Below are positions 2,790-61,394 of a DNA stretch of 64,000 nt, piece after piece (the stretch's first letter is position 1; each line of letters opens with the position of its first letter). The notes under the pieces were generated by a model. It ran no database searches, was not told where the DNA came from, and was given only the letters and a program-made list of their open reading frames with translations. Where the stretch lies: positions 159,746-223,745 of the forward strand of contig LYOR01000001.1 of the NCBI GenBank assembly GCA_001766825.1, in the 5' to 3' direction. A program made the position numbers and the translations under genes. This DNA comes from Candidatus Syntropharchaeum butanivorans. GTDB taxonomy: Archaea; Halobacteriota; Syntropharchaeia; Syntropharchaeales; Syntropharchaeaceae.

Positions 2790-5730
<2,941 letters not shown>

Positions 5731-5733
5731 TCA

Positions 5734-5743
5734 CTATATCCAG
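5734..5743 (-). other. 5' strand of the 23S processing stem (pairs with 2778-2787)
   Basis: See the partner feature; exact 10-bp complementarity. Confidence 0.65.
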
Positions 5744-5842
5744 TTAGCGTCCAGATCTTGGAACTTATGATCGTTTCATTTAGCATCGCATCACGCGTGC
5801 TATCAACACTTCCTCAAACGCTTACGCGCAAGAGTGCATCTA

Positions 5843-5914
5843 TGGACTCGCTGGGATTTGAACCCAGGGCCTTCGCCTCGCAAAGGCGACGATCTTCCAC
5901 TGATCTACGAGCCC
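5843..5914 (-). tRNA. tRNA-Ala (anticodon UGC) in the 16S-23S spacer, no encoded CCA
   Basis: The reverse complement folds by hand into a cloverleaf: GGGCTCG TA GATC AGTGGAA GATC G TCGCC TTTGCGA GGCGA AGGCC CTGGG TTCAAAT CCCAG CGAGTCC A. The anticodon is TGC, and the G3:U70 alanine identity pair is present. Confidence 0.95.
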
Positions 5915-5931
5915 CGTCCCAGCCTTAATGG

Positions 5932-5964
5932 CTCTAATAATTTATCGACGATCCGATCAGCAGT
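5932..5964 (-). other. 3' trailer strand of the 16S processing stem
   Basis: The trailer RNA ACUGCUGAUCGGAU ... AUUAUUAGAG pairs with the leader (7496-7527). The two helices are 14 bp and 10 bp, each with one G-U pair, separated by an 8/9-nt internal loop. Confidence 0.75.
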
Positions 5965-5991
5965 TTGATCTTTATTTTATTTTTTTATTAT

Positions 5992-7472
<1,481 letters not shown>

Positions 7473-8927: not shown

Positions 8928-9857
8928 TCAAACCTCCAGGAAACGCTTATCTGAAAAATCCTCCCTCATGACGAGGACGACCCTGCTTATCTCAGATTCA
9001 TCCTCGATCGCGTAACCATCCAGTGAATCCACAATTTTCCCGGTAAACTCCCTTATCTCATTGTGTGAAGGCATATTCGATCGATCAAGCCTCATGCGTG
9101 AGTATCCAAGATGCATGTACGACTTAACCTCGATAAAGTCAGGTTCTGCCCGGTGGATGAGCCTCGCATATACGTCTGGGTCAACCATGTTAACGCCCTT
9201 TATCATCGTCAGCCGGATCACCTTTCTTGTCCTGAGCTTTGATAAAGTCTCAAGTGACTCCATGATCCTCTCCCAGTAGTCATCATCTGGATGGCATATA
9301 CGCTCATACAGGTCACGATTGGGCGCGTTAAGCGATAGATAAGCTTGAGTCGGTCTCACTCTCCGAAGCATCTCAGGGTTTGTCCCATTTGTCACAAGAA
9401 ACGTCGTGTACCCGAGTGCGTTAAGCTCATCGATGAAAGCGGGTAAATAGGGGTAAATGGTCGGCTCACCGATGAGCGATATCGCAACGTGCTTGGGCTC
9501 GGCCGCCTCCCTGAGCCGTTTTGTGTCTGTCGTATCAGAACCGCCATACCCGGATAAAATCCTCCTGTGTTCGAGTAAGAGGGCCTGAATCAGCTCTGAT
9601 GGGGTATCCCATACGATATCGTCCTCACTCAATTCGATGAACGGTCGCCAGCAATGGATGCATGCCTGGTTGCAGAGGATTGTGGGCGTCATCTGGATGC
9701 AACGATGTGATGCAACCCCATAAAACCTCCCCTTGTAGCAGAACTCCCCTCCCCTCATCGCTTTTTTTAACCATAGGCAGGGCTTGGTTGCACTGTGCTG
9801 ATGCTCCCCAAAAAGGTGGTATCCCTGCAATTCAAGCCTTCTGATCCAATCATCCAC
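8928..9857 (-). CDS. taw1: tRNA 4-demethylwyosine synthase (TYW1/Taw1), radical SAM
   Basis: 309 aa. The blocks GEFCYKGRFYGVASHRCIQMTP and CNQACIHCWRP (radical-SAM CxxxCxxC) are typical of archaeal Taw1. Confidence 0.8.
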   Translation of the reverse strand: MDDWIRRLELQGYHLFGEHQHSATKPCLWLKKAMRGGEFCYKGRFYGVASHRCIQMTPTILCNQACIHCWRPFIELSEDDIVWDTPSELIQALLLEHRRILSGYGGSDTTDTKRLREAAEPKHVAISLIGEPTIYPYLPAFIDELNALGYTTFLVTNGTNPEMLRRVRPTQAYLSLNAPNRDLYERICHPDDDYWERIMESLETLSKLRTRKVIRLTMIKGVNMVDPDVYARLIHRAEPDFIEVKSYMHLGYSRMRLDRSNMPSHNEIREFTGKIVDSLDGYAIEDESEISRVVLVMREDFSDKRFLEV

Positions 9858-10422
9858 GTGATTTCCCCTCCTCGACCATCCTCAGGAAGTACCTGTATAG
9901 CCTCGTATCATCGACAAGCTCAGGGTGAAATGATGATGCGAGGATGTTCCCCTCTCTTGCAAGAACAACGCCCTCCTTAATCCTTGCAAGAACCTCCACA
10001 CCCTCCCCCACCTGTTCCATCACAGGTGCACGGATGAAAATCGCCTTAAACGGCTCATTTCCAAGAGCAGGTATATCAAGCATCGCCTCAAATGATTCAC
10101 GCTGTCTACCGAATGCATTCCTCTTCACATCGGCATTGATCAACCCCAGTCCATAGCGTGATCTACCAAGCACCACCAGCCCTGCACATGTACCGAATAT
10201 CGCTTTGCCACGATTTTTCGCCTCAATAATCTCCTGATCCACACCTTCCCCTCTCATGAGCCGCATAAATGTTGTGCTCTCCCCACCGGGGATCACAATC
10301 CCGTCACATGAATCTATGACCCCTGCCCGTCTGACAAGTCTCACCTCTGCACCCAGGCTCTCTATCGCCCTCTCATGCTCGGATACATCCCCCTGAAATG
10401 CAAGGAGCGCGATCTTCATCAA
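9850..10422 (-). CDS. pdxT: pyridoxal 5'-phosphate synthase glutaminase subunit PdxT
   Basis: 190 aa. Contains MKIALLAFQGDVSEH, DGIVIPGGESTT, FGTCAG (catalytic Cys) and SFHPEL. Confidence 0.85.
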   Translation of the reverse strand: MMKIALLAFQGDVSEHERAIESLGAEVRLVRRAGVIDSCDGIVIPGGESTTFMRLMRGEGVDQEIIEAKNRGKAIFGTCAGLVVLGRSRYGLGLINADVKRNAFGRQRESFEAMLDIPALGNEPFKAIFIRAPVMEQVGEGVEVLARIKEGVVLAREGNILASSFHPELVDDTRLYRYFLRMVEEGKSRG

Positions 10423-10485
10423 TGATAATTTGATTCTGGTTACTTAAGCCTTGCTCAACGCTGATATCCCACCATGAAAAATCGC

Positions 10486-10497
10486 AATCTTTATATC
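10486..10497 (+). promoter_or_regulatory. TATA-box candidate for the cytochrome operon (apparently leaderless)
   Basis: aatctttatatc ends 23 nt upstream of the ATG at 10520. No Shine-Dalgarno sequence lies in between. Confidence 0.4.
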
Positions 10498-10519
10498 TTC
10501 TCCGGGGGTCATCCGTGAT

Positions 10520-11077
10520 ATGAGTCTCATAAAGAGGGTATGGACGGAGAGGAGAGACCTTATCGTCGGGATCATTGCAGGTATCATTTTGGGCGCGATC
10601 CTCACAGGAGGTGGCATCTTTGCATGGAACTTCAGCAACAGTGACAAGTTCTGTGTGAGCTGCCACAAGGTGATGGGCGGGTATGATGTGAAGCTCAAGC
10701 AGGGTCCCCACTGGAGCAAGCATTGCATAGATTGCCATGGTGAGGAGACCTTTACCGATGCGTTGAAGGTGAAGATGTTCGAGGACCCAAAGCTTCTCAT
10801 GAAGTACATAACAGGTAACTACGAGGTACCACCCCATGCAGAAATAACAAATGAGTTCTGCGAACGCTGCCATGTATCGCCTGAGAAGGGTAACAGGGTG
10901 TACTTTGACGTGAGCTTCGACCACGCGGTCCATGCAGAGAACCTCGAGTGTGAAACATGCCATGGCAGGGTCGCACACGGATACACGCCGATGCCAACCG
11001 GGCATGACCTCTGTGGTAAGTGTCACCTGAATGAGATCAGAGATCCAGCTAAGTGTAGCTTCTGCCATCGTATCTGA
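10520..11077 (+). CDS. membrane-anchored multiheme cytochrome c, NapC/NirT/NrfH-like, six CxxCH motifs
   Basis: 185 aa with an N-terminal hydrophobic helix LIVGIIAGIILGAILTGGGIFAW. The motifs are CVSCH(KVM), CIDCH, CERCH, CETCH, CGKCH and CSFCH at Cys45, 69, 114, 144, 165 and 179. Confidence 0.8.
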   Translation: MSLIKRVWTERRDLIVGIIAGIILGAILTGGGIFAWNFSNSDKFCVSCHKVMGGYDVKLKQGPHWSKHCIDCHGEETFTDALKVKMFEDPKLLMKYITGNYEVPPHAEITNEFCERCHVSPEKGNRVYFDVSFDHAVHAENLECETCHGRVAHGYTPMPTGHDLCGKCHLNEIRDPAKCSFCHRI

Positions 11078-11080
11078 TCG

Positions 11081-11410
11081 ATGACGAAAGTTGTAATCCA
11101 TGGCGGTGCCTGTAAGTTCAAAACCGAGGTGACAGTCCTGCATGAGGGGGAGAACCTGAGGATTGAGACGGTGTCAGAGTGTGAGTACTGCCGCAGTCTC
11201 GGGGATGATCTTGTAAAGGTGAGCTTCTCTGATCTATTTCCAGATACGGCAAGCCCGGCGCTCGGATTTATGGATAATCCCGTTTACAGGAAGGCTGATG
11301 AGCATCTCCCCCATGTCGATTGTCCTGTCCCGTGTGGCATCCTGAAGGCAATTCTTGCTGAGCTTGGCCTGCAGCTTAAGGAGCCACCAAAAATCGAGTT
11401 CACTGAGTAG
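11081..11410 (+). CDS. small soluble Cys/His-containing protein of unknown function, translationally coupled to the cytochrome
   Basis: 109-aa ORF starting 3 nt after the cytochrome stop. Contains GGACKF, SECEYC and HLPHVDCPVPCGILKA motifs, with no TM segment. Confidence 0.55.
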   Translation: MTKVVIHGGACKFKTEVTVLHEGENLRIETVSECEYCRSLGDDLVKVSFSDLFPDTASPALGFMDNPVYRKADEHLPHVDCPVPCGILKAILAELGLQLKEPPKIEFTE

Positions 11411-11413
11411 TTC

Positions 11414-12400
11414 TTATAGCAGGTTGCGCCGTTTAAGTATCTTTTCCTCTGCCTCCTCTCTTTCAATGAGTGTACCGGGGGGAAAGAGTGTGAGGAGTTT
11501 TGCTTCAGCACCGTACAGGATCCTGCTCTCGCGGAAGGTATCAGGATAGGTGTAGGACTCATCCATATACCGGATTCTTGCTTTGATCGTTTCATTCGGT
11601 GTAGGGGGGACTTCCTCAAGCCCTATCTCCTCAAGTATCACCTCTGCATCACTAACAAAGAGATTGGAGTAGTAATTACCCTCATAAAACCATGATGAGA
11701 GTCGTTCTGTAAATATCTCCTTTGATTCAAGCTCTCTAAGTGGTGCTGGCTCTGGCAAAACCCCCTCGTAAGGCCTCTCCCTCCAGCCAAGATCGACAGC
11801 ATGAGTTAGATCAAAATGGCGCGCGAATATCTCAAAGGAACTCCTTTCGCTGACTGCTCTATCCACAAGGGAAGAAAGATGGGCAAAAAAAGGTGTAATT
11901 TCCAGATTCTCTCTTTCCTTCTGGATCTCGCGAAGAAGCGATGATCCTTGAGTGGGGGAGTACTGTCTGCATATATCCATCATGCGATCACCGGTCTTTG
12001 GATGTCTCAGGAAAAGCTCTTCCGGGTCATTCTCATTTATCTCAATGATCTCCCCCCTGCTCACCTTATATCTGAAGAAAAACTCGAGATTGAGGTTATT
12101 GTCATTTAAACAACTCAGTGAGATCGTTGTATCTCCAAAAAGTGCCTGAACAGGTGCTGGATCAAACGAATGCGCGCTGTTAAAGAGATAAACGTAGCTG
12201 AGCCAGCACACACTCCCACTCAAAGAGGGTGAGTCGAGAATATATCTGTTTCTAACCCTGTACTCCTCCCTCATCTCATATAGATATGACTTATATCTGG
12301 CCCTGCTGGGAGTGCATGTAACCCCCCTGTACGTTCGTGACCAGTTCCGTTCAACTGGCCAGTACTCCCATGGTTCGTAAATGATCCGCTGGAGAGGCAC
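11414..12400 (-). CDS. hypothetical protein (328 aa), no recognisable domain
   Basis: Long ORF with a 5-nt gap to the upstream 253-aa ORF on the same strand. I could not recognise any motif. Confidence 0.55.
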   Translation of the reverse strand: MPLQRIIYEPWEYWPVERNWSRTYRGVTCTPSRARYKSYLYEMREEYRVRNRYILDSPSLSGSVCWLSYVYLFNSAHSFDPAPVQALFGDTTISLSCLNDNNLNLEFFFRYKVSRGEIIEINENDPEELFLRHPKTGDRMMDICRQYSPTQGSSLLREIQKERENLEITPFFAHLSSLVDRAVSERSSFEIFARHFDLTHAVDLGWRERPYEGVLPEPAPLRELESKEIFTERLSSWFYEGNYYSNLFVSDAEVILEEIGLEEVPPTPNETIKARIRYMDESYTYPDTFRESRILYGAEAKLLTLFPPGTLIEREEAEEKILKRRNLL

Positions 12401-12405
12401 GGTCT

Positions 12406-13167
12406 CTACTCTATATATTTACATCTTCCCTTGAGGCGTTTCTTCCTGAGAAACTCCTCCATGTAAGAGACCAGTTCATCCCTGAGAACATCAAGCACCT
12501 GTTTCCTCCTCACAATCTCATTGACCTCATCCCTGTGCGTCTCAAATGAGTTCATCAATCCACGGTGAATGTTCTTGAGCATTGCCATATCCTCTGCCTC
12601 TCCTGTGGCGAGGGTGGTGTTTCCGAACCACAGCTCAGACCTCCCCCTTTTATCCCTGATCTGATACTTCATCTCCTCAAAGCCATAGATGCCCATCACA
12701 CGGTAGAACGCGTTCTGATATATAAATCGGACAAAGTTCTCCGTGATTGCGGGTGGCGTTTCTTCTTTTCGTAGATGGCCCATGTTATCTTCAACTTCCT
12801 TCTCGATGCGTTTGTAAAGGGATCTGCAGCTTGAGATATAATCCTCTGCAAGGCTTTTATACTTCAACCATCCTTCTTTGAGCTTTTTAGCCTTTGATCG
12901 CCATCCTCTGAGGTGATTTGTCATCAAATCCTCAAAAAGCCGCTTTTTCTCAACCTCCAGAATGAACTCGCTCTTTGATGTATCATAAAGCCATCGGGAC
13001 CGCTTTGAGATATGTATCTCCATCGAGAGATCGCTGATATGGATGTAGTACGGCTCTGGAAGGCCGATCGTATCTCGCCACTCCTTTATTATCTCATCAA
13101 GTTTCCGCTTATGCTCCCTCACCAGATCTTTTCTGCGACCCATCAGGGGTTTTAAAATCTCCACCAT
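12406..13167 (-). CDS. hypothetical protein (253 aa), charged/helical, no recognisable domain
   Basis: ORF lying 64 nt downstream of proB on the same strand. Lys/Glu/Arg-rich, with no TM segment. Confidence 0.55.
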   Translation of the reverse strand: MVEILKPLMGRRKDLVREHKRKLDEIIKEWRDTIGLPEPYYIHISDLSMEIHISKRSRWLYDTSKSEFILEVEKKRLFEDLMTNHLRGWRSKAKKLKEGWLKYKSLAEDYISSCRSLYKRIEKEVEDNMGHLRKEETPPAITENFVRFIYQNAFYRVMGIYGFEEMKYQIRDKRGRSELWFGNTTLATGEAEDMAMLKNIHRGLMNSFETHRDEVNEIVRRKQVLDVLRDELVSYMEEFLRKKRLKGRCKYIE

Positions 13168-25479: not shown

Positions 25480-25974
25480 GTGGCCGCTATCTCAGAAGAA
25501 ATGGTCTTACTCTTAGCTCTTATTGCTCTTACAATCCTGCTCTCGATGGGAGTTCTTCTTACCCGGGATAACTTCTTCTCTGCCATGTACATGTCTGCAA
25601 CGCTGATCATGGTTGCAAGCATTTACGCATTCTTTGGCATACAACCTCTGTTTATCCTCATCATCTTCATCTTCGTTGGTGTGACCGGTATTGTGACCGT
25701 TGCACTCGCTGCAACATTCAGATCAGAGCCAGAAAAGGCATCTCCGGGGTTCTGGGGGCCTCTTGCATTAACAACAGCTTTAATAGTTGCCATCTCCCTC
25801 AGCACATCACTTAGGCACCATCCAGAATCCGGGATGGGGGCAATCCAGTTTGAACTCGGGGGCTTTCTTGGAAACCCCGGCTACATCCTGCTCATCATAT
25901 CTCTCACATCACTCGGGATACTGCTCATGCTCTCGGTCCTGAAGATGATAGGAGGTGTGAATGAGTGCAGATAG
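25480..25974 (+). CDS. fqoJ: F420H2:quinone oxidoreductase / complex I subunit J-like membrane protein
   Basis: 164-aa hydrophobic ORF (an ATG alternative lies at 25501). The NuoJ-like block is LLTRDNFFSAMYMSATLIMVASIYAFFG, and a NuoK-like gene follows directly. Confidence 0.6.
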   Translation: MAAISEEMVLLLALIALTILLSMGVLLTRDNFFSAMYMSATLIMVASIYAFFGIQPLFILIIFIFVGVTGIVTVALAATFRSEPEKASPGFWGPLALTTALIVAISLSTSLRHHPESGMGAIQFELGGFLGNPGYILLIISLTSLGILLMLSVLKMIGGVNECR

Positions 25975-26282
25975 ATGCACTTACCCTATCAGCGCTCTAT
26001 ATAGCATCGTTTGTACTGCTTTTAATCGGATATCTGACCGTTATATCAAGCAAAGACCTGATTCGAGTACTTATATCACTTGAACTCATGTTTGGTGGCG
26101 TTTTTCTCTCGCTCATCCCACTTTTTACTTCTCTTCCAAACCCTGCATTTGGAATAGCTCTTATCAGTATATTTACAAGCAGTTCTGAGCTTTTAGTACT
26201 TATTGCTGCCATTATAATCTTTGACAGGAAAAATAAAAGCCTCTCCACAGGTCTGGTCAGGGTGGGAGGTGAGAGGACGTGA
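25965..26282 (+). CDS. fqoK: complex I subunit K (NuoK/FpoK/MnhC-like)
   Basis: 105 aa with three hydrophobic helices. Contains SKDLIRVLISLELMFGGVFLSL and SSSELLVLIAAIIIF (NuoK pattern with a conserved Glu in the helix). Confidence 0.65.
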   Translation: MQIDALTLSALYIASFVLLLIGYLTVISSKDLIRVLISLELMFGGVFLSLIPLFTSLPNPAFGIALISIFTSSSELLVLIAAIIIFDRKNKSLSTGLVRVGGERT

Positions 26283-27787
26283 CACTTATGAGTATTGGGC
26301 CCGAGGCAGCGCTTCTTGCGATCATAATCCCTGCTCTCGCATCGCTTTTAATCCTTCTATCAGATAAGCACCCGGATATCAGGGAAGGGTGGACACTCCT
26401 TGCAAGTGTGCTGTGCTTCCTCTCTGTGATCACACTCGTCCCTGTTATCCTAAATGGAGATGATATTGAGTACACACTTTTTAATATCTACCCTGGATTA
26501 AGCATCGCGTATAACGTCGATGCATTCGGTCTTATATTTGCTATCACCTCCTCATCCCTCTGGATTCTCGTATCAATCTATTCAATCGGGTACATGCGAA
26601 CGCTCAATGAACACGCCCAGACGAGGTTCTACTTCTGTTTTGCATGGGCGATATTCGGTGCACTCGGGATTGCATTCTCAAAGAACCTTGTAACGATGTA
26701 TCTTCACTATGAGATCCTCACAATATCGACATACCCCCTTGTTGCACATCTTGAGACCCCGGAGGCGTGTGCTGCGGGTCGTAAGTACCTCTATTATCTC
26801 CTGACCTCTGGTTGCTTCTTCTTTATCGCAATAATAGTAACATACTGGCTTTGTGGAACCACAGACTTTAAACCAGGCGGGATACTCTCGCTTGCATCAG
26901 GCTCGGCACTGCTTTTGCAAGCACTATTTCTCTGTTATCTGCTTGGTTTCATGAAGGCTGCATGGATGCCGTTTCACTCATGGCTCCCAACCGCGATGAT
27001 TGCACCAACCCCGGTGAGCGCACTGCTTCATGCTGTTGCTGTCGTTAAGGCAGGGGTATTCGGTATCATCCGTGTGGTCTGCTACATATACGGGATAGAT
27101 CTCATGCACGCACTCAATCTCGGGATCTTTCTCGCCTCACTTGTCTCGATCACGGTGATCATGGCAAACCTGTTTGCGATTGGTGAGGATAACCTCAAAC
27201 GAAGGCTCGCATACTCAACGATAAACCAGCTCTCATTCATTCTCCTGGGTGTTGCGATGCTTGATCCGATGGGAATAATGGGTGGAATGATGCACATTCC
27301 GTTTCATGGGTACATGAAGATCACTCTCTTTCTCTGTGCCGGTGCAATCATGGCGATAACCGGAAAGGAAAATATAAGCGAGATGGCAGGTATCGGTAGA
27401 AAGATGCCAATAACGATGATCGCATTCACCGTGGGTGCGCTTGGTATGTGTGGATTGCCCCCGGCTGCCGGATTCATAAGCAAGTGGTACATCTGCATGG
27501 GAACGATCGATGCAGGGATGTTGATATTTCTGGCGGTTGCTCTCGTTGCCTCGATCCTGGATGCGGTCTATTTCTTCCCGATCATAAAGACTGCATTCTT
27601 CGATGAAGGGAACTTTGATGAGAGAGATTCAGGGTACATGGAACGATCGAGGGCGATTTACCTCTTCATGATAATCCCACTCGCGATTACGGCCATATTC
27701 TCCGTGATCCTCTGTTTCGCCCCAGATACACTGCATGTATTCGAGCTCGGAAGACTTGCGATGATAAATCTCTTTGGAGGTGTGTGA
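26279..27787 (+). CDS. fqoM: antiporter-like subunit (NuoM/FpoM / MnhD family)
   Basis: 502-aa polytopic protein. WMPFHSWLPTAMIAPTPVSALLHAVAVVKAGVFG is the proton-conducting-membrane-transporter core. Confidence 0.75.
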   Translation: MTLMSIGPEAALLAIIIPALASLLILLSDKHPDIREGWTLLASVLCFLSVITLVPVILNGDDIEYTLFNIYPGLSIAYNVDAFGLIFAITSSSLWILVSIYSIGYMRTLNEHAQTRFYFCFAWAIFGALGIAFSKNLVTMYLHYEILTISTYPLVAHLETPEACAAGRKYLYYLLTSGCFFFIAIIVTYWLCGTTDFKPGGILSLASGSALLLQALFLCYLLGFMKAAWMPFHSWLPTAMIAPTPVSALLHAVAVVKAGVFGIIRVVCYIYGIDLMHALNLGIFLASLVSITVIMANLFAIGEDNLKRRLAYSTINQLSFILLGVAMLDPMGIMGGMMHIPFHGYMKITLFLCAGAIMAITGKENISEMAGIGRKMPITMIAFTVGALGMCGLPPAAGFISKWYICMGTIDAGMLIFLAVALVASILDAVYFFPIIKTAFFDEGNFDERDSGYMERSRAIYLFMIIPLAITAIFSVILCFAPDTLHVFELGRLAMINLFGGV

Positions 27788-28013
27788 GATGGAGAAAAGA
27801 ACTTTATTCCTCATATATTACTCCTCACTCCTTCTGTTTCTTCTCCTTGATATCGCACTCCATCTTCTCCACCATCCTGAGCCACATTTCCCATGGGAAC
27901 GTATCCCTGGATTCCATGCACTATTCGGGTTCATCGGATGCTTCATCCTGATACTCGTATCGAAGTCCCTGGGGCACTATCTGCTGATGCGGGAGGTGGA
28001 TTATTATGATTGA
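27774..28013 (+). CDS. small two-helix membrane protein inserted between the M-like and L-like subunit genes
   Basis: 79-aa ORF (ATG at 27789 gives 74 aa). Two hydrophobic segments flank HHPEPHFPWERIPGFHA. It overlaps both neighbours. Confidence 0.5.
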   Translation: MEVCEMEKRTLFLIYYSSLLLFLLLDIALHLLHHPEPHFPWERIPGFHALFGFIGCFILILVSKSLGHYLLMREVDYYD

Positions 28014-29724
28014 ATGGATACATCCAGGTCTGATACTGATCTTTGGATCGCTTTTCATACCTCTCATCAGTAATAGAAGGGTGAAACAGGCTTATTTTGT
28101 AATTCTACCAGTCTTAGCCCTGATAGATCTTATTCTGATCTCAAAAGGCTTCTTCGGTGGTGTACCATCCTCCCACTGGTCCATAGATATAGTCGGATAC
28201 GATCTGCTCCTCGGGAGGGTTGATAAGCTCAGCATGGTCTTTGCATACGTATTCGTGATCGCCGCACTCTGTATGAACGTCTATGCGCTCCACATCAACC
28301 GCGATTGGGAGCACGTATCAGCGATGCTGTATGCAGGAAGCGGACTCGGGGTCGTATTCGCGGGTGATCTCTTCTCCCTCTACATCTTCTGGGAGATCAT
28401 GGCGTGGTCATCCCTCTTTCTGATCTGGTTCAGGGGTACGCGTTCCGCGCTTGATGCAGGATTCAGGTACATCATGTGGCATCTTACCGGTGGCATCCTT
28501 CTGCTTGCAGGGATCTTGATCCATGTCCAGACGACCGGGTCAATAGAGTTTGTGAGCTTCCTCGATTCATGGGGCTCGTCCATGGCATACTACCTCATAC
28601 TCCTCGGGTTCATCATCAACGCCGCGGTTCCCCCGCTCCACCCCTGGCTCACCGATGCATATCCTGAGGCAACCGTAACCGGAGCGGTCTACATGACTGC
28701 ATTCACGACAAAGAGCGCTGTCTATGTCCTGATAAGGGGATTTGCAGGGCTTGAGTTGATCATGTGGCTCGGTGCGATCATGGCGATGTACGGTGTGATC
28801 TTCGCGATGCTTCAGAACGATGGAAGGAGGCTTTTAGCCTATCACATCGTATCCCAGGTTGGGTACATGGTCTGTGGTGCAGGGATGGGGACTGCGATGG
28901 CGATAAATGGTGCAACCGCACATGCCTTCTGTCACATCCTCTACAAAGCACTCCTGTTCATGGGAATGGGTGCTGTACTTGAGGTAACCGGGAGAAGCAG
29001 GTTCACAGAGCTTGGAGGGCTCTATAGGTACATGCCCCGCACATTCTGGCTCTATATGATCGGTGCATTCTCGATATCGGGTTTCCCGCTCTTCAACGGG
29101 TTTGTAAGCAAGACGATGACCGTTGAAGCATCTGCACTGATCCATCAGCCCATCGTCTGGTTCCTGTTAGAGGGCGCATCAATAGGAACGTTCTTCTGCA
29201 TAGCGCTCAAACTGCCCCGCAATGTCTGGTTCTCGGAGGAAAAGCCAGTTGTTGAAGCAAAGGAACCTCCTATCAATATGCTTGCTGGAATGGGGATGCT
29301 TGCAGCACTCTGTATATTTCTTGGAATCTATCCGAAACCTCTATATGATCTGCTCCCATATCCTGTGGAATTTGTACCATACACCTCGGAACATGTGCTT
29401 GGTATATGCCAGCTCCTTTTCTTCGCATTTATCCCGTTCTGGATAATGCGTGAGAGTTTCAGGGGAGAGGAGAAGATAGTCTTAGATACAGACTGGCTTG
29501 TAAGGATTCCAGGCAGGAGGTTTATCAGATTCTGCGAGGATACCTTGATCAGGTACGCAGAGTTTGATGAGAAGAGGTTCTTTGTGTTTCCTGCTTTACT
29601 TGAGCGGTTGTCAAAGAGCATCAGGGCGATTCAGACCGGATACCTCCAGGACTACCTCAGGATTATCTTTGCGATCGTGATAATCTCCCTGATTTTAGCC
29701 TCAATAGGGGGAATGCTCATATGA
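28006..29724 (+). CDS. fqoL: antiporter-like subunit L (NuoL/FpoL / MrpA-D-like) with a C-terminal lateral-helix-like tail
   Basis: 572 aa. Core PPLHPWLTDAYPEATVTGAVYMTAFTTKSAVY. The C-terminus has an amphipathic stretch (ALLERLSKSIRAIQTGYLQDYL) followed by a final TM helix, as in NuoL. Confidence 0.7.
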   Translation: MIEWIHPGLILIFGSLFIPLISNRRVKQAYFVILPVLALIDLILISKGFFGGVPSSHWSIDIVGYDLLLGRVDKLSMVFAYVFVIAALCMNVYALHINRDWEHVSAMLYAGSGLGVVFAGDLFSLYIFWEIMAWSSLFLIWFRGTRSALDAGFRYIMWHLTGGILLLAGILIHVQTTGSIEFVSFLDSWGSSMAYYLILLGFIINAAVPPLHPWLTDAYPEATVTGAVYMTAFTTKSAVYVLIRGFAGLELIMWLGAIMAMYGVIFAMLQNDGRRLLAYHIVSQVGYMVCGAGMGTAMAINGATAHAFCHILYKALLFMGMGAVLEVTGRSRFTELGGLYRYMPRTFWLYMIGAFSISGFPLFNGFVSKTMTVEASALIHQPIVWFLLEGASIGTFFCIALKLPRNVWFSEEKPVVEAKEPPINMLAGMGMLAALCIFLGIYPKPLYDLLPYPVEFVPYTSEHVLGICQLLFFAFIPFWIMRESFRGEEKIVLDTDWLVRIPGRRFIRFCEDTLIRYAEFDEKRFFVFPALLERLSKSIRAIQTGYLQDYLRIIFAIVIISLILASIGGMLI

Positions 29725-30950
29725 ATGACCTCATACTCATGACCATAGCGGTTGTTCTCCTCCTTCTTGGTTCAGTTGTCTCATACAGGTATCCAAGGGC
29801 AGGATTTTTCAGCGCGGTTGCCGCGGTTATGACCGCATTTTTTGCCTGTGCGTCCCCTGAGTATGGTATCTTCATCCTTCTGATAGGCATACTGAACCTC
29901 ATCTCACTTGATGCTATTCGAAGCAAGATAAGAGGTATCGATTACGGGCTTGTCGGGTTTATGGTGATCGTTACGATGTATATATTCAACACAGCAGAAC
30001 TATCGCTCGTTCTGGCATCCTTTGTTCTTGTATCCGTTCCCACATACATTCTTGTAATGATGCGCGAGGATGAGATGGATGTTGAGGTTGGTGTGAAGTA
30101 CATCGTGTTCATGGTCATTGCCACCGTGCTATTTCTCACAGGTGCCATCATCCTTGCAAAAGGGATTGAGTCACTTTACGTGCTCGGGTATGTGGCACTC
30201 ATACTCGGTCTTGCCCTTGAGCTTGGGATAGCGCCGCTTCATGAGTGGGTCCCTGATATATTTGCGCGGGCAGATCCTGTGCCGCTTTCAATCATTGCAT
30301 CGATTGCAAAGATTGTGCCGTTTGTTGTAGCATTCAGGATACTTTACTCAACTGCAACCGAGCTTACAGGAGCTGTTATGGTATTCACAGCGCTTCTTGC
30401 AGCCACATCGATGTTTATCGGAAATATCGGGGCCCTGACATCCAGGGAGCATGGCAGGGTGCTCGGATACTCGACCGTTGCAAATATGGGTTATCTGATG
30501 TCATCCCTTCTTGCCGTTACAGAACCTGAGTTTCTCCCTCTTGCACTTGCAGGTGGGCTCCTGCTCCTCTTCTCAAATGCATGCGGGAAGATCGGGTTCT
30601 TCAGTGCGATGAAAGGGGAAGATGCCTATTCCCCGTTCACTTACATGCTCTCCTTCTCATTCCTAGGGGTTCCGCCGCTTATTGGTTTCTGGGGAAAGCT
30701 TTTTATCGCAATCACCCTGATAAGGATAGAGTACGTCTGGCTGGCCGTGATACTCCTGATCAACTCCGCTGTATCGATACCGTACTATCTGAGACTTGCG
30801 AAGGAGCTTGGGAAGGCGTGGCATACGAGTCTCACAGGCTTTATCGTGCTTGCTTCTGTCCTGATCACACTCCTTACGATCGCCCCGAACTGGTTTGTCG
30901 ATGGGATTGAGGCGCTTATGCCACTCATCTTGATTGAGATGGGAGGGTGA
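29721..30950 (+). CDS. fqoN: antiporter-like subunit N (NuoN/FpoN-like, short)
   Basis: 409-aa polytopic protein with APLHEWVPDIFARADPVPLSIIASIAK. Confidence 0.7.
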   Translation: MNDLILMTIAVVLLLLGSVVSYRYPRAGFFSAVAAVMTAFFACASPEYGIFILLIGILNLISLDAIRSKIRGIDYGLVGFMVIVTMYIFNTAELSLVLASFVLVSVPTYILVMMREDEMDVEVGVKYIVFMVIATVLFLTGAIILAKGIESLYVLGYVALILGLALELGIAPLHEWVPDIFARADPVPLSIIASIAKIVPFVVAFRILYSTATELTGAVMVFTALLAATSMFIGNIGALTSREHGRVLGYSTVANMGYLMSSLLAVTEPEFLPLALAGGLLLLFSNACGKIGFFSAMKGEDAYSPFTYMLSFSFLGVPPLIGFWGKLFIAITLIRIEYVWLAVILLINSAVSIPYYLRLAKELGKAWHTSLTGFIVLASVLITLLTIAPNWFVDGIEALMPLILIEMGG

Positions 30951-31305
30951 AAAGATGATGGAGAAAGCAGTTGTGATCGGTCTTGTCCTTGCGCTCTGTA
31001 TTCTTACAGATCTTGCCATCCTCACACTTGCAAAGCTTCTTCCAAGATACAACCTGACAGACCTCAAGGTATCAAGGTGGGAGGCCGGAAACTTGCCGGT
31101 GGGGCGCGCAAAGGGTCTGCTACCGATGCAGTATCTCAGCTTCATGTTTCTCTTTATGGCACTTGAACCGATAACCGTGGTCCTCTTCATCTTTGCTGCG
31201 CATCCCACCACCGGCTTCTACATCCTTCTGCTTATATCACTTCTTCTCATCCTGCCCACGGTGTATATCGGTTATAAGGCAGCGACGGAGGGGTTTGAAC
31301 GATGA
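30934..31305 (+). CDS. fqoA: complex I subunit A (NuoA/FpoA)
   Basis: About 116-123 aa (ATG at 30955 is likely). SRWEAGNLPVGRA...MQYLSFMFLFMALEP is the NuoA pattern. Confidence 0.7.
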   Translation: MRWEGEKMMEKAVVIGLVLALCILTDLAILTLAKLLPRYNLTDLKVSRWEAGNLPVGRAKGLLPMQYLSFMFLFMALEPITVVLFIFAAHPTTGFYILLLISLLLILPTVYIGYKAATEGFER

Positions 31306-33605
31306 ATGATGAGAAGAACAGGAACATAGATATCCTTCGCACAGGGCCGTTCTCCTGGCTGAAAAGGTGGTCTGCAAGATGGAGCCTCTGGCCATGCCAC
31401 TTTGTAACCTCGTGCTGTGGTGTTGAGCTTGCCCATGCATCAGGTTGTGGCTATGATATGGAGAGGCTCGGGACCCTGACAATGGGTATATCAAGGCAGA
31501 CGAATACGATCATCGTTGAGGGTACGATAACAAGAAAGATGGCACGAGCGCTCAGAATCGTATGGGAGCAGATGCCAGATCCGAAGTTCGTGAATGTGAT
31601 AGGCGCGTGTGGTCAGCGTGGGGGAATCTTCTGGAACAGCTACCATATCACACATCCACATACGATCGTTCCTGTTGATTTTTTCGTGCCCGGGTGCCCT
31701 GTAACCCCGGAGGCACTTATAAGAGGCGTGAGGGCACTGCAGAAGAAGATAGAGGGAGAGGATAGGGATACAATACGCTTTAAGAAGGCTAACCTGCAAT
31801 TTAAAGAGAGAAAGAAGAATATGCCCCCAACCTCCCCGAAGCTCCTTGCACCAACCCCGCTTATTAGAAACGACATTCCAGGCGGGGTGGGATGGGAGGA
31901 TGGGGATGAGCTTGTTGAGATGGTGAGATCGCGCCTCAAAGGTCTCACAGCTTCAATAACGGTAACAGATGAGAGGCGAATTACTATCAGAACAAGAGAA
32001 GATGAGATCAAGGAAATTGCAAAGAGGCTGTCTGAGATTGGCTTTGATCATGTAAAGAGTGTAAACCTGGTGGATGTACCACATGAGAAGAAGCTCATCC
32101 TTGAGTACGTGATCTCAGGTTACAGCAAGAGCCTCATGCCCATTCTGATCACGCTCACCGCGGATATCAGGGGTAAATATGACCTTCCAGGGCTCTCAGA
32201 TATCTGGCAGAGTGCCGATTACACAGAGCGTGAGCTGCAGGACCTCTTTGGTGTGAGGTTTGAGGGGAACTCATGGAATGAGATCTTCATGCTGGCACCT
32301 GACACCCCTCAATCCCCGCTCAGAAAGAGCTTCAGGCTTGAGGAAGAGGAATACATCCTCAAGGATGGCGTTCCACTTACACCCCACATTGATCCACCCT
32401 CTGACCTTAATGCCCCCCTCCCTTCCGGGGTGCTGGAGGAGGTTGAGGAGATGGGAGAGTACCTCGTCCTTGTAGGGCCCCACCATACAGGAAGCGGGCA
32501 TATGAGGTGGATCATGCGGCTTGATGGGGATATCATCACAGAGATCATCCCTGATCCAGGGTATGTCCACAGATCAATGGAGAAGATTGCAGAAAGCAGG
32601 CTTTACATCCAGAACATCCCGCTCTTTGAGCGGCTCTGCATCGTCGATCCTGTTAACATGAACCTCGGGTATGTACGTGCGATAGAGCGGGCACTCAAGG
32701 TTGATGTGCCTGAGCGGGCAGCATATATAAGAACGATGATGGCAGAACTCTCAAGGATCGGGTGCTTCATATACGACGCAGGGATATTCTCGCTCTTCAT
32801 GGGGCATTCAACAGGTTTCATGTATCTGTGGGCGATAAGGGAGATGCTCCTTGAGACCTTCTTGAGAATAACCGGGTCAAGATGCTCGCCTTCATTCATC
32901 CTGCCAGGGGGTGTGAGAAGAGACGTGGGGGATGATCTGCTTGATCTTATCGGAAACCTCACAACCGCTATTCTACCACGGTTTAAGAAGTTTGAGGATA
33001 TATTTGTGCGAAACCCGGTGCTTTTAGCAAGGGTCAAAGGGGTGGGAGTGCTCTCAAGGGATGAAGCCGTGAGGTATGGGATTGTGGGGCCATTCTTGAG
33101 GGCATCCGGGGTTGAGTATGATATCAGAAAGATTGAGCCGTATGATGCCTATGATAGCCTGGGGTGGGAGATGATAACAGCAGATGATGGCGACTCGCTT
33201 GTAAGGTTTCTTGTGAGGCTTGAGGAGATGCGAGAAAGTCTTGGCATCGTGAGCCAGTGTGTGGATGTGCTCAAAGGTATGAGAAAGGGGGATGTGATAA
33301 GTGAGGAGATACTCGGGGATTATCAGGAAGGCTCCCGGGACATAAGGGGATCTCTTTACAGGGTCTACGGTAACCTCGTTCTTCCAAGGGGTGAGTGGAC
33401 GGTGCTTACAGAGGCAGCAAGGGGGACACTCCTCTTCTCAATTATGAGTGATGGTGAGTCGAATGTGCCGTATCGTGTCAGGGTTATCACGCCAAGCTGG
33501 ATGAACCTGAGGGGGTTGATAGAGGCAGCAAGGGGTGAGAGGATGGCAGACTTCTGGGCGATATATGGTAGCTTTGGATACTTCCCGCCTGAAGCAGACA
33601 GGTGA
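31302..33605 (+). CDS. fused complex I subunits B-C-D (NuoB/NuoC/NuoD domains in one 767-aa polypeptide)
   Basis: The NuoB part has TSCCGVE, IGACGQRGG and VPGCPVTPE (the four N2-cluster Cys). The NuoC part has SADYTERELQDLFGVRFEGN. The NuoD part has VGPHHTGSGHMRWIMRLDGDIITEIIPDPGYVHRSMEKIAE. The reading frame is continuous. Confidence 0.85.
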   Translation: MNDEKNRNIDILRTGPFSWLKRWSARWSLWPCHFVTSCCGVELAHASGCGYDMERLGTLTMGISRQTNTIIVEGTITRKMARALRIVWEQMPDPKFVNVIGACGQRGGIFWNSYHITHPHTIVPVDFFVPGCPVTPEALIRGVRALQKKIEGEDRDTIRFKKANLQFKERKKNMPPTSPKLLAPTPLIRNDIPGGVGWEDGDELVEMVRSRLKGLTASITVTDERRITIRTREDEIKEIAKRLSEIGFDHVKSVNLVDVPHEKKLILEYVISGYSKSLMPILITLTADIRGKYDLPGLSDIWQSADYTERELQDLFGVRFEGNSWNEIFMLAPDTPQSPLRKSFRLEEEEYILKDGVPLTPHIDPPSDLNAPLPSGVLEEVEEMGEYLVLVGPHHTGSGHMRWIMRLDGDIITEIIPDPGYVHRSMEKIAESRLYIQNIPLFERLCIVDPVNMNLGYVRAIERALKVDVPERAAYIRTMMAELSRIGCFIYDAGIFSLFMGHSTGFMYLWAIREMLLETFLRITGSRCSPSFILPGGVRRDVGDDLLDLIGNLTTAILPRFKKFEDIFVRNPVLLARVKGVGVLSRDEAVRYGIVGPFLRASGVEYDIRKIEPYDAYDSLGWEMITADDGDSLVRFLVRLEEMRESLGIVSQCVDVLKGMRKGDVISEEILGDYQEGSRDIRGSLYRVYGNLVLPRGEWTVLTEAARGTLLFSIMSDGESNVPYRVRVITPSWMNLRGLIEAARGERMADFWAIYGSFGYFPPEADR

Positions 33606-33611
33606 TCCGGG

Positions 33612-34703
33612 ATGACTGGAACTGTTGAAGCACTGATAAATCTGATGATGGCAGATCAGGTGGCGATACCGCTTCTTGATCCGATCTTAAATATCCTCTA
33701 CGGGATACCGCTTCTCGGGCATCTACTTGCCCTCATCCTCTGGAAACCTCTCTTTGCCGCTCTGATCTGCCCTGGCTTTGCAACGCTCGGCGGACTTCTC
33801 ATGCTCCTCCCATGGATTGAACGGAAGCTTGTTGCAAGGATACAGTGGCGCATCGGTCCGCATGAGATACTGCCACAGATGGGTGGGGTGATCCAGCTTC
33901 TTGCAGACTCGTTGCGTTTTCTCTTTCAGGAGGTGATCGTGCATAGAGATGCCAAGCAGCCATACTTCCTTCAGTTCCCGGTATTATCCTTTATACCGGC
34001 ACTTCTTCCACTCCTGTTCATCCCTGCAGGTACCATCATCGCGATAGAGTCCCCCTATGGGGCTCAGATAGTACTTGCGATGGTGACCCTCTTCCCGCTC
34101 TTCATCCTGGGTCTTGGCTGGGCCTCAAACTCAAGGTTTGCGTACATTGGAACGGTAAGAGAGGCATTTGTCTATTTTGGTTATGAGATTGCCCTCATAG
34201 TTTCCGCTTTTGCGATGATCGTTCTCTACGGTACATCAGACCCTCTGGCAATCTCAGGTATGCAGCAGGTACCGGGAATAATCCTGAACCCGGTTGCAGC
34301 CCTTGCGTTCTTCATCGCTTCTGCAATGGCAACATCCCGCCTTCCTTTCGAGATTCCTGAGGCAGACCAGGAGCTTGCAGGAGGACCCCACGTTGAATAC
34401 TCAGGGATCCTCTTCGGGCTGATATATGTCATCTCATATGAGAAGGTCTACATCCTGAGCGGTCTTATGACCCTGCTGTTTCTGGGTGGGGGAAGCGGCC
34501 CTGAGATCCGGGTGTTGGGCGATCTTTCAGGTCTTATCTGGTTTATCCTCAAGACACTCCTTGTCATGATAGCCCTCATTGCGCTTCGCGCGATATACCC
34601 GAGATACAGGCTTGATCAGGCGCTCAGGATCGGATGGAACCCGGTCTTCACCTTAAGTACGATTGCAGTTGGGGTATCACTCATGGAGGTTCTACTCCTA
34701 TGA
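33612..34703 (+). CDS. fqoH: complex I subunit H (NuoH/FpoH)
   Basis: 363-aa polytopic protein. Contains ERKLVARIQWRIGP, the LADSLRF..KE-like LADSLRFLFQE, and PFEIPEADQELAGG (NuoH signature PFDxxEAExELxxG). Confidence 0.88.
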   Translation: MTGTVEALINLMMADQVAIPLLDPILNILYGIPLLGHLLALILWKPLFAALICPGFATLGGLLMLLPWIERKLVARIQWRIGPHEILPQMGGVIQLLADSLRFLFQEVIVHRDAKQPYFLQFPVLSFIPALLPLLFIPAGTIIAIESPYGAQIVLAMVTLFPLFILGLGWASNSRFAYIGTVREAFVYFGYEIALIVSAFAMIVLYGTSDPLAISGMQQVPGIILNPVAALAFFIASAMATSRLPFEIPEADQELAGGPHVEYSGILFGLIYVISYEKVYILSGLMTLLFLGGGSGPEIRVLGDLSGLIWFILKTLLVMIALIALRAIYPRYRLDQALRIGWNPVFTLSTIAVGVSLMEVLLL

Positions 34704-35428
34704 GAAAGGTTGTGGCACCAGATTACACCGTCTTTGAGCATGTAAAGCGGCATGTAGAGGCTGTTAAGACTGCAATTAGAGAGGCGATTATTCCAGAGAG
34801 TGTAACATGCTCCTACCCGAAAGAGCGGAGGAAGATGCCGGCATCTTTCAGGGGATATCTCATCTTCGACCCTGATCGATGCATCAGCTGCTTTGGGTGT
34901 GCTTTTATCTGCCCTGCAAATGCGATAAGGATGAAAGAAGCAGAGGATGGGAGGTACTACCCAACGATAGACTATGGAAAGTGCATTTTCTGCCATTTTT
35001 GCCTTGATTCATGCCCGGAGGGTGCGCTTAAACCGACAAAAATCCATGATGTTGCGTATAGAGACCTGGATAGGATGTTGACACTGACGGAGGAGATGAT
35101 CGAGCCTCCCGAGATCATAAGGGAGGATAAGAGGTATGTGGAGTATGTGATAGACGGGAGAGACCTTCATCTCAGGCGGGTGGATGGAGAGGATGAGCTT
35201 CTTGTTGATCTCCCGCCTCCCTCAAAGGTAGAGAGGATCGCCTCATGTATTGATCCTGAAAGCTGTACTGGGTGCAGGATATGTGAGGAGGTCTGTGAGC
35301 ACGGTGTGATCAGATCATCTGTGGAAGAAGATGGTGTGAGAATGGTTATTGACTCTGAACGGTGTACCGGGTGTGGGCTATGTGTTAAGGAGTGCTCGAT
35401 GAGGGTTCTAAGGCTTGTGCGGAGGTAA
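34700..35428 (+). CDS. fqoI: complex I subunit I (NuoI/FpoI) with an extra C-terminal 2x[4Fe-4S] ferredoxin domain
   Basis: 242 aa from an ATG overlapping the fqoH stop (ATGA). The NuoI core has CISCFGCAFICP and CIFCHFCLDSCP. The roughly 120-aa extension carries CTGCRICEEVCE and CTGCGLCVKECS. Confidence 0.8.
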   Translation: MRKVVAPDYTVFEHVKRHVEAVKTAIREAIIPESVTCSYPKERRKMPASFRGYLIFDPDRCISCFGCAFICPANAIRMKEAEDGRYYPTIDYGKCIFCHFCLDSCPEGALKPTKIHDVAYRDLDRMLTLTEEMIEPPEIIREDKRYVEYVIDGRDLHLRRVDGEDELLVDLPPPSKVERIASCIDPESCTGCRICEEVCEHGVIRSSVEEDGVRMVIDSERCTGCGLCVKECSMRVLRLVRR

Positions 35429-35432
35429 TTTG

Positions 35433-60653: not shown

Positions 60654-61394
60654 ATGGTGTATCTTCTCCTCTCACCTACCATATTTGAGGCAAAAGAGCT
60701 CTTGGCATGGATTAATATCCGGGATAGATGGACATTCAGGAGTTTTGAGGCTTTTTCCGGGGAGGTATGTGGCAAGGAGGTTGTACTTGCGATTTCAGGC
60801 GTTGGAAAGGTGAATACAGCACATGCACTCACGATACTGCTTGAGAGGTGCCCTGTAGAGCTTTTAGTCCTCTTTGGATGTGGCGGGGCTTACAGGGGGA
60901 GTGGCGGATCTATCGGGGATGTCATGATTGCAACAGAGGAGGTTTATGGTGATGAGGGTGTTTTAACAGAGGATGGATGGTTATCTATGGAGGAGATCCG
61001 GATCCCACTCCTTAAGAAGGGGGATAAAACCTGCTTCAACTCCTTCGATCTTGAAGGAAAGGTTCTTGAACAGGTTAGAAGAATTACTGAGGGGATTTCT
61101 GAGCCAAATATCTTTTATGGGAGGTTTTTGACAGTTTCAACCTGCTCTGGAAGCTTGAAAGCTGGGGATACGCTATATGACAGGTTTGGTGCTATATGCG
61201 AGAACATGGAGGGGGCAGCAGCGGCGCATGTTGCCCGGATCTATGATCTTGATATGATAGAGATCCGGGGTATCAGCAACCTCATCGAGGATCGAGTGTT
61301 TGAGAGGTGGGATATACAGAGGGCTGTTAAAAGCTGCAGCAAGGTCGTTATTGAGGTCCTTGGAGGATTGGGGGAGGGAAAGGAGGATGGATAA
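60654..61394 (+). CDS. mqnB: futalosine hydrolase-like nucleosidase (MqnB / PNP-UDP-1 family)
   Basis: 246 aa. Contains ISGVGKVNTA, FGCGGAY and ENMEGAAAAHVA. A role in the futalosine pathway is inferred from the family pattern only. Confidence 0.55.
   Translation: MVYLLLSPTIFEAKELLAWINIRDRWTFRSFEAFSGEVCGKEVVLAISGVGKVNTAHALTILLERCPVELLVLFGCGGAYRGSGGSIGDVMIATEEVYGDEGVLTEDGWLSMEEIRIPLLKKGDKTCFNSFDLEGKVLEQVRRITEGISEPNIFYGRFLTVSTCSGSLKAGDTLYDRFGAICENMEGAAAAHVARIYDLDMIEIRGISNLIEDRVFERWDIQRAVKSCSKVVIEVLGGLGEGKEDG

Follow-up and report, generated by a model that had tools for sequence, protein, structure and literature searches.

The closest characterized relative of the protein described here is NrfH of Desulfovibrio vulgaris (PDB entries 2j7a and 2vr0), the menaquinol dehydrogenase subunit of cytochrome c nitrite reductase, in which a single membrane helix is followed by heme 1. 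CymA of Shewanella, the tetraheme NapC/NirT proteins and the pentaheme TorC/DorC proteins share family PF03264 and an anchored topology, and TorC illustrates that an added C-terminal heme domain is tolerated in this family (PMC6295460). Here we analyze a gene pair of the butane-oxidizing archaeon Candidatus Syntropharchaeum butanivorans, contained in a 64,000-nucleotide stretch of contig LYOR01000001.1 (assembly GCA_001766825.1, positions 159,746 to 223,745 of the forward strand; hereafter, the window), that encodes a 185-aa cytochrome with six CxxCH heme motifs and a 109-aa protein of family DUF6951. The cytochrome is a new archaeal member of the known NapC/NirT/NrfH family and a plausible link between the menaquinone pool and an outward electron chain.

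The passage of electrons from the quinone pool to extracellular cytochromes constitutes an acknowledged gap in the biology of alkane- and methane-oxidizing Syntrophoarchaeia. For Ca. S. butanivorans, the present metabolic model lists the enzyme for the reaction of menaquinol (MQH2) with an acceptor X as '? MHCs', that is, multiheme cytochromes (PMC11543930 Table 1). In the sister group ANME-1 (anaerobic methanotrophic archaea), no clear quinol:cytochrome c oxidoreductase has been recognized, and small anchored cytochromes might act like CymA (Chadwick et al., PMC9012536). A genomic survey found homologues of CymA, CbcL and ImcH in Bacteria only (PMC6295460). The idea of such a protein in an archaeon nevertheless has a precedent in GAH_01256 of Geoglobus ahangari, a putative decaheme NapC/NirT quinol dehydrogenase proposed for Fe(III) respiration (PMC8280799). 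Likened by description, GAH_01256 and the cytochrome analyzed here share an archaeal host, more than four hemes and a proposed connection from the quinol pool to extracellular electron transfer (PMC8280799); they differ in heme number, ten versus six, and GAH_01256 was not among the close relatives found. In the literature collection searched, no paper on six-heme NapC/NirT proteins and none mentioning DUF6951 was retrieved.

Heme sites, membrane anchor and family assignment

The cytochrome gene is the sole open-reading frame (ORF) with at least two CxxCH motifs in the six frames of the window. Its motifs begin at C45, C69, C114, C144, C165 and C179, a density of approximately one heme site per 25 residues of the extracytoplasmic part that lies far above chance. 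The apoprotein has a mass of 20.9 kDa, which would rise to about 24.6 kDa with six hemes bound. A single hydrophobic stretch of 23 residues (approximately aa 14-36; top Kyte-Doolittle 19-mer from aa 15, score 2.3) is modeled by AlphaFold as a helix spanning aa 12-39, with a predicted local distance difference test (pLDDT) of 85-96, that continues into the heme-1 region as it does in NrfH. The basic residues K5, R6, R11 and R12 preceding the hydrophobic stretch fit an orientation with the N-terminus inside and the C-terminus outside, and residues I4, K5, R6, E10 and R11 of this cytoplasmic tail are invariant in the archaeal clade formed by the protein and its orthologues. The model has a mean pLDDT of 68.5, being good over aa 1-110 and poor past aa 120. 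An earlier reading of the DNA, made from the sequence alone (hereafter, the sequence-only reading), had described a 185-residue protein carrying six CxxCH motifs behind a single hydrophobic N-terminal helix, and all three properties are upheld by the ORF, the motif scan, hydropathy and AlphaFold.

We assign the cytochrome to the NapC/NirT/NrfH superfamily with high confidence, on the basis of both family profiles and fold. PF03264 (Cytochrom_NNT) scores 33.7 bits against a gathering cutoff of 24.1, aligning aa 13-95 with profile positions 7-94 of 174, and the precomputed Pfam label on the orthologues agrees. The NrfH model TIGR03153 aligns end to end (aa 22-153 on positions 8-138 of 138), and the subfamily hidden Markov models (HMMs) rank NrfH first, followed by TorC, NapC/NirT and NapC. 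A profile built from four orthologues and searched against the PDB finds D. vulgaris NrfH as its best match (2j7a_C, E 2.6e-6, aa 18-120), while a Foldseek search of the AlphaFold model against the same database returns two chains, 2vr0_F and 2j7a_C, both NrfH (probability 1.00, TM-score 0.53-0.54, 141-144 columns). The family likeness claimed by the sequence-only reading is hence significant by profile and by fold, and the single membrane helix it called for is likewise predicted.

The C-terminal part of the protein has a different affinity. Over aa 131-184, the protein passes the gathering cutoff of PF14522 (Cytochrome_C7; 31.1 versus 24.8 bits), and in the PDB profile search ActA-like and c7 cytochromes match aa 128-184, with the c7 structure 1ehj_A at E 1.6e-5. 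Residues 128-184 thus resemble cytochrome c7/PpcA of Geobacter and Desulfuromonas, with three hemes in about 55 residues. The c7 proteins are small soluble periplasmic carriers, whereas the c7-like unit here forms the C-terminal end of an NrfH-like protein tethered to the membrane and shares its first heme with the tetraheme core, where that heme corresponds to NrfH heme 4. The architecture is therefore that of an NrfH-like tetraheme core with a two-heme C-terminal extension that, together with heme 4, is c7-like.

The likeness to NrfH extends to the order and spacing of hemes 1-4 and to individual residues. Structures of NrfHA show Met49 as a ligand of heme 1 and Lys82 in the wall of the site that takes up menaquinol or its analog HQNO (2-heptyl-4-hydroxyquinoline N-oxide). 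M52, H64 and K85 of the cytochrome align with NrfH Met49, His61 and Lys82 in the 2j7a_C profile alignment. Lys91, the CymA equivalent of NrfH Lys82, is reported to be essential for quinol oxidation (PMC2762525). Conservation of these residues was assessed in 140 aligned relatives of the heme module. Heme motifs 1-4 are conserved in about 100% of them, motif 5 in 88% and motif 6 in 67%; H64 is conserved in 100% and H135 in 98%, the M52 column is 83% Met, and the K85 column is 84% Lys and 7% Arg, with K85 invariant in the archaeal clade. Also invariant in this clade are the non-motif histidines 64, 106, 135, 138, 153 and 162, which would suffice for bis-His ligation of the other hemes.

The heme-1 context departs from the family pattern by one residue. 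The first motif reads CVSCHKVM, as the sequence-only reading had it, but the CxxCHxM hallmark invoked there is displaced: the arrangement is CxxCH-x-x-M, with the Met three residues past the His instead of two, and the clade as a whole shows CxxCH-K/E/D-V-M. HMM alignments set M52 in the family Met column by means of a clade-specific one-residue insertion, V51, after the heme-1 His; a second such insertion, M86, follows K85. Further differences from NrfH are a sequence identity of only about 22-23%, the archaeal host, the two additional C-terminal hemes, the lack of a clear equivalent of Asp89, and the absence of an nrfA neighbor, no other multiheme ORF being present in the window or in the orthologous loci. 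From CymA, NapC and TorC the cytochrome differs in having six hemes rather than four or five, and only the N-terminal half of PF03264 aligns.

Relatives of the cytochrome and origin of the gene

The cytochrome is 99% identical to a Ca. S. butanivorans database entry and has an exact match on contig DRIE01000007.1 (GCA_011052865.1). Four orthologues are known, at 64-99% identity, and the conservation of heme motifs among them, a point raised by the sequence-only reading, is complete in number and imperfect in form. All four keep the six sites, but two have CX3CH at site 1 (CTAFCH and CVEPCH, seen on several independent contigs) and another has CXCH (C-A-CH) at site 5. The latter is represented by a single contig and could reflect an assembly error or a lost heme. 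A distant bacterial homologue likewise has CX3CH at site 1 (CGLTCH).

An exhaustive profile search identified 1261 relatives at E <= 1e-3, including 162 at E <= 1e-10. Many are single-helix proteins of 170-220 aa with identical six-motif spacing. The named relatives come from bacteria (Candidatus Frackibacter, Desulfosporosinus, Bacillus, Anaerobacillus, Pseudoneobacillus, Desulfobacteraceae and Magnetomorum) and already bear the annotation "NapC/NirT family cytochrome c" or "cytochrome c3 family protein"; the six-motif module occurs mostly in Bacillota. Outside the clade, uncharacterized bacterial six-heme proteins come closest (E 1e-40 to 1e-18, 24-32% identical). Two of them, WP_089748812.1 of Frackibacter (173 aa) and MCR4426372.1 of a member of the Bacillota (174 aa), resemble the archaeal cytochrome in length, anchor and the conserved Met, His and Lys positions, and the spacing of motif starts is common to both groups (0, +23/24, +67-69, +97-99, +120, +134). 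They differ in having CxxCHxM at heme 1, where the archaeal protein has CxxCHxxM, and in their gene neighborhoods, which feature menaquinone, heme or Rex genes and no DUF6951. The two C-terminal hemes, which had been deemed unexplained by the canonical family, are no anomaly, since the same six-motif spacing is common in bacterial NapC/NirT proteins.

The six-heme module also forms the N-terminus of Bacillota proteins with 21-30 hemes. Two of these, of 683 aa (30 CxxCH) and 494 aa (21 CxxCH), are the closest relatives outside the archaeal clade, and their first 175 or so residues constitute an anchored six-heme module. This position suggests that long heme wires of Gram-positive bacteria, too, are rooted in the membrane by this module.

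Three loci of bacterial six-heme homologues were examined for gene context, and none has a DUF6951 neighbor. In a Candidatus Frackibacter-like locus (L097, 3155-10522), the homologue lies between a UbiE/MenG gene with a polyprenyl synthase gene and a heme block encoding HemA, a cytochrome-assembly protein, siroheme synthase, HemC and HemD. Of the remaining two, one follows genes for a polyprenyl synthase and Rex, and the other follows Rex. The proximity of menaquinone, heme and Rex genes argues that members of the family function in quinone and redox metabolism.

Profile searches revealed no archaeal relatives beyond the Syntrophoarchaeum clade, the gene being absent from ANME-1 and other archaea. 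With this distribution, the cytochrome gene was probably acquired by an ancient transfer from bacteria, among which the six-heme module is common. Recent horizontal transfer was rejected, since the GC content (51%) and third-position GC content (GC3) of both genes fall within the range of neighboring genes; with such unremarkable composition, any transfer would be old.

Proposed function and competing explanations

The host context is congruent with a role in quinol oxidation. As the sequence-only reading had noted, the window carries an F420H2:quinone oxidoreductase-type operon and a gene of the futalosine pathway. The first is an Fqo/Nuo-like operon (25480-36470, +) with three antiporter-type subunits, NuoH, a fused NuoB-C-D of 767 aa (31302-33605) and an FrhB-type subunit (35415-36470) that scores 154-156 bits, well under the FpoF/FqoF equivalog cutoffs of 444-475. 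The second (60654-61394, +) encodes the futalosine hydrolase MqnB (TIGR03664, 205 bits against a cutoff of 125) and probably corresponds to SBU_000247 of the published annotation. Elsewhere in the genome, the published annotation lists mqnABCDEX, CcmE and CcmF, as well as multiheme cytochromes with PGF-CTERM signals (PMC11543930 supplements). Cytochrome c maturation and menaquinone biosynthesis, whose absence the sequence-only reading had regarded as damaging, are thus represented, as are further multiheme cytochromes; the other findings it had named as damaging, poor CxxCH conservation and a want of NapC/NirT similarity, are not observed either. Among the entries listed in those supplements, neither PF03264 nor DUF6951 is named.

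We propose that the cytochrome acts as a reversible menaquinol:cytochrome c oxidoreductase feeding an outward electron chain, a reading that draws on homology, quinol-site residues, family context and host physiology and to which we assign a probability slightly better than even (about 0.55). The protein would be a type-II membrane protein with a short basic cytoplasmic tail, one helix and about 150 residues outside the membrane, where six c-type hemes would be covalently bound. Residues 1-153 would form an NrfH-like tetraheme quinol-dehydrogenase core, with heme 1 placed at the membrane surface beside M52 and K85, the counterparts of (mena)quinol-site residues in NrfH and CymA. The last 30 residues would add two hemes that, with heme 4, make up a c7-like triheme unit lengthening the wire away from the membrane. 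The menaquinone pool of Ca. S. butanivorans, presumably filled by Fqo/Nuo-type complexes, would then reversibly exchange electrons through this protein with extracytoplasmic multiheme cytochromes, a proposed hub function akin to that of CymA. This exchange may represent the first step by which electrons move outward to the sulfate-reducing partner, and the protons of the oxidized quinol would be released outside.

Several observations weigh against this proposal. No acceptor cytochrome or reductase gene is adjacent, and the cytochrome is the only multiheme ORF in the 64 kb. Oxidation of MQH2 toward a partner at about -220 mV is endergonic, by +27 kJ/mol under standard conditions (PMC11543930 Table 1). 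The C-terminal half of the AlphaFold model has low confidence (pLDDT 42-58), the heme-1 Met is displaced by one residue relative to the family, and NrfH Asp89 has no clear counterpart outside the archaeal clade. Scores fall far under the cutoff of every named subfamily (38.4 versus 134.2 bits for the NrfH equivalog TIGR03153, 25.1 versus 310.6 for NapC/NirT TIGR02161, 15.1 versus 349 for NapC NF007906 and 25.2 versus 478 for TorC TIGR02162), so the protein is an orthologue of no characterized enzyme. Lastly, its absence from ANME-1 and other archaea means that it cannot be a general solution for Syntrophoarchaeia.

The displaced Met also fits an alternative in which the cytochrome is simply a tethered, or cleaved and soluble, c7/c3-like relay between redox proteins that does not react with quinol. 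The match of the C-terminal half to cytochrome c7, c3 and TmcA models is in line with this view, as is a possible peptidase site (IFA/WN) after the hydrophobic stretch, and related archaea carry many small anchored multiheme cytochromes whose quinol reactivity is not inferable from genomes (Chadwick et al., PMC9012536). The N-terminal half, helix included, nonetheless has NrfH as its sole match in the PDB, the 23-residue stretch is modeled within one long helix that runs into the heme-1 region like that of NrfH, the quinol-site Lys and Met are conserved across the 140 relatives, and bacterial homologues adjoin menaquinone-biosynthesis genes. Taken together, these data make a mere relay an unlikely explanation, albeit one with substance.

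The closeness of NrfH in sequence and fold lends itself to another interpretation, in which the cytochrome oxidizes quinol as the small subunit of one dedicated reductase encoded elsewhere, in the manner of NrfH and NrfA. A multiheme protein resembling hydroxylamine oxidoreductase (HAO) could be the partner, and instead of interspecies transfer the pair would serve a side reaction, for instance the reduction or detoxification of nitrogen or sulfur oxoanions. Proteins of the NapC/NirT type are usually dedicated to particular reductases. The published annotation of the genome includes, moreover, HAO-like 'seven times multi-haem' PGF-CTERM cytochromes (PMC11543930 supplement). Characterized nrfH genes, however, are co-located with nrfA, and neither the window nor any of the four orthologous loci has a reductase gene beside the cytochrome; where NrfH has an NrfA-dependent environment around heme 4, this protein has its two extra hemes, and the NrfH equivalog score is far too low. 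We regard a dedicated reductase partner as improbable.

Gene pair, locus layout and significance

The cytochrome gene is followed by a 109-aa ORF that contains HLPHVDCPVPCG and begins 3 nt past the TGA stop (Table 1), as described in the sequence-only reading, and this neighbor is kept in all orthologues. A TATA box (TTTATAT, 10490-10496) precedes the cytochrome ATG by 23 nt, also as previously read, and the 22-nt block AAAAATCGYAATCTTTATAWCT that includes it is invariant in five diverged loci (the window and four orthologous ones) amid intergenic sequence that otherwise differs. This pattern of conservation supports a real promoter, with a B recognition element (BRE) and a TATA box, from which the pair would be transcribed as a small two-gene operon; given the short distance to the ATG, the cytochrome mRNA is probably leaderless or nearly so. 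A convergent gene ending at 11414 limits the transcription unit to exactly two genes, and the 3-nt spacer predicts translational coupling of the DUF6951 gene to the cytochrome gene. A 256-aa opposite-strand ORF (10373..11143) was discarded as an antisense shadow of the cytochrome gene, and other opposite-strand ORFs overlapping the locus (10444..10809 among them) were treated likewise.

Table 1. Features of the cytochrome-DUF6951 locus, in window coordinates
Feature	Position	Strand	Basis
Archaeal promoter block: A-rich BRE-like stretch and TATA box	10477..10498	+	conserved in five loci
Hexaheme cytochrome c gene (NapC/NirT/NrfH superfamily), 185 aa	10520..11077	+	ORF, Pfam, NCBIfam, profile, fold
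NrfH-like tetraheme core, aa 13-153, heme sites 1-4	10556..10978	+	TIGR03153, PF03264, 2j7a_C, Foldseek
Predicted transmembrane anchor, aa 14-36, after conserved basic tail (aa 1-13)	10559..10627	+	hydropathy, AlphaFold, NrfH alignment
Heme motifs 1-4	10652-10666, 10724-10738, 10859-10873, 10949-10963	+	
Cytochrome c7-like triheme stretch, aa 128-184, heme sites 4-6	10901..11071	+	PF14522, 1ehj_A
Additional C-terminal heme sites 5 and 6	site 5, 11012-11026; site 6, 11054-11068	+	
DUF6951 gene, 109 aa, predicted soluble and cytoplasmic	11081..11410	+	PF22263, alignment, AlphaFold

Directly downstream of the pair lie two convergent ORFs with no Pfam family, of 328 aa (11414-12400, -) and 253 aa (12406-13167, -). 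They occupy the same place in other Ca. S. butanivorans assemblies, but the corresponding loci of relatives lack them and have TldD/PmbA genes at this position. The window also harbors a complete archaeal rRNA operon (2792-7472, -) comprising 16S (5992-7472), tRNA-Ala(TGC) (5843-5914) and 23S (2792-5727) genes, with no 5S gene reported by Rfam anywhere in the window.

The second gene product matches PF22263 (DUF6951) over its full profile (E 1.2e-24; bit score 87, cutoff 27; aa 2-107 aligned with positions 1-101 of 101). In an alignment of 58 sequences, G9, C11, C34, N66, H78, C81, G86, K89 and F107 are invariant, such that the Cys3-His constellation C11/C34/H78/C81 is a fixed trait of DUF6951. 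A sequence scan detected no signal peptide, transmembrane helix or hydrophobic segment. The AlphaFold model (pLDDT 90.8) consists of a three-stranded sheet and four helices and has no significant fold match in the PDB by Foldseek; a PDB profile search returned nothing relevant. An IscU/NifU-like scaffold was considered and rejected: the top IscU chains in Foldseek reach only E 0.55-1.6 and TM-scores of 0.37-0.49, and hhalign against an approximate E. coli IscU sequence gives a probability of 0.04. The modeled likeness to IscU is accordingly a weak lead only.

A scan of a genome collection located 80 DUF6951 loci, of which 48 were scored for neighbors, the small gene having been lost by the greedy ORF caller in the other 32. 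The 80 loci belong mostly to Nitrospirota/Thermodesulfovibrionales, with others in Thermoleophilia, Methanofastidiosa and Firmicutes. None of the 48 scored loci has a multiheme neighbor, and DUF6951 as a general cytochrome partner was rejected on that count. The recurrent neighbors are instead a RACo corrinoid activase (31/48), an HdrD-like CCG protein (27/48) and a multi-helix membrane protein (26/48). Genes for an MtaA-like methyltransferase, a corrinoid protein and an Fe-S protein usually come before that of the activase. In the Nitrospirota cluster (L019, 1584-10621; also L014), genes for the MtaA-like methyltransferase, corrinoid protein, Fe-S protein, RACo and DUF6951, sometimes with FolD, are followed by those for a multi-helix membrane protein without Pfam family, an HdrD-like CCG protein and a threonine-synthase-type pyridoxal phosphate enzyme; in L019, a further 384-aa ORF follows the latter (9467-10621). 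DUF6951 is found mainly in this conserved cluster, which has the appearance of a methyl-transfer system coupled to the membrane.

Within archaea, the copies examined at >=59% identity all lie directly after the cytochrome gene, with a 3-nt spacer or a 1-4-nt overlap. The pair occurs in two neighborhoods, one with PdxT and uncharacterized genes (the window) and one with a B12-radical-SAM gene and TldD/PmbA (the relatives). A more distant copy (50% identity), in a Syntropharchaeia metagenome-assembled genome (MAG), overlaps the end of a gene for a 561-aa double ATP-binding cassette (ABC) ATPase, and another (45%), in an ANME-1 MAG (L094, 3358-3906), follows a gene for a 182-aa signal-peptidase-I-like membrane protein. 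The cytochrome-DUF6951 pairing is therefore real and restricted to one narrow lineage. Since DUF6951 has no export signal and is predicted to reside on the wrong side of the membrane, it is unlikely to be an extracytoplasmic redox partner of the heme domain and is probably not the redox partner of the cytochrome. The coupled Cys/His partner envisaged by the sequence-only reading does not survive these comparisons as such: most likely, it is a Cys3-His protein of the cytoplasm that binds a metal or an Fe-S center and, judging from gene order, would be co-expressed with the cytochrome only within this lineage.

A physical two-subunit complex of both proteins, formed by docking on the cytoplasmic tail or through unrecognized export, and placing a metal or Fe-S center in the electron path or serving regulation, would take the persistence of the pair at face value. 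All five close lineages show it, across both neighborhoods, the cytoplasmic tail of the cytochrome is strongly conserved, the Cys3-His site is invariant, and DUF6951 in Nitrospirota adjoins another membrane redox module composed of the membrane protein and the HdrD-like CCG protein. Yet a lone helix without cofactor cannot carry electrons across the membrane to a protein devoid of signal peptide and transmembrane helix, and neither the 48 scored loci, nor the archaeal copies at 45-50% identity beside ABC ATPase or signal-peptidase-like genes, nor the bacterial six-heme homologues reproduce the association, which could stem from shared ancestry in one genus-level clade. We hence find such a complex quite unlikely. 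Least probable is a joint reading in which direct interspecies electron transfer in butane-oxidizing Syntrophoarchaeum begins with the cytochrome as the missing menaquinol:multiheme-cytochrome oxidoreductase and DUF6951 is a hitherto unrecognized cytoplasmic Cys3-His metalloprotein specifically accompanying quinone-interacting membrane modules, docking on the cytoplasmic tail to assemble or regulate the cytochrome, with the Nitrospirota module as an HdrE/D-like pair beside the corrinoid activase; within it, the cytochrome part is likelier than the DUF6951 part.

Our knowledge of the NapC/NirT/NrfH family itself is unchanged by these results, and the main use of the new archaeal member is as a testable candidate for the missing step between the quinone pool and extracellular cytochromes. 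If the cytochrome does act as a menaquinol:cytochrome c oxidoreductase, the solution would be lineage-specific and probably borrowed from bacteria. For one cultured consortium, the gene provides a concrete, small and clonable candidate for that step, with quinol-site residues that can be mutated.

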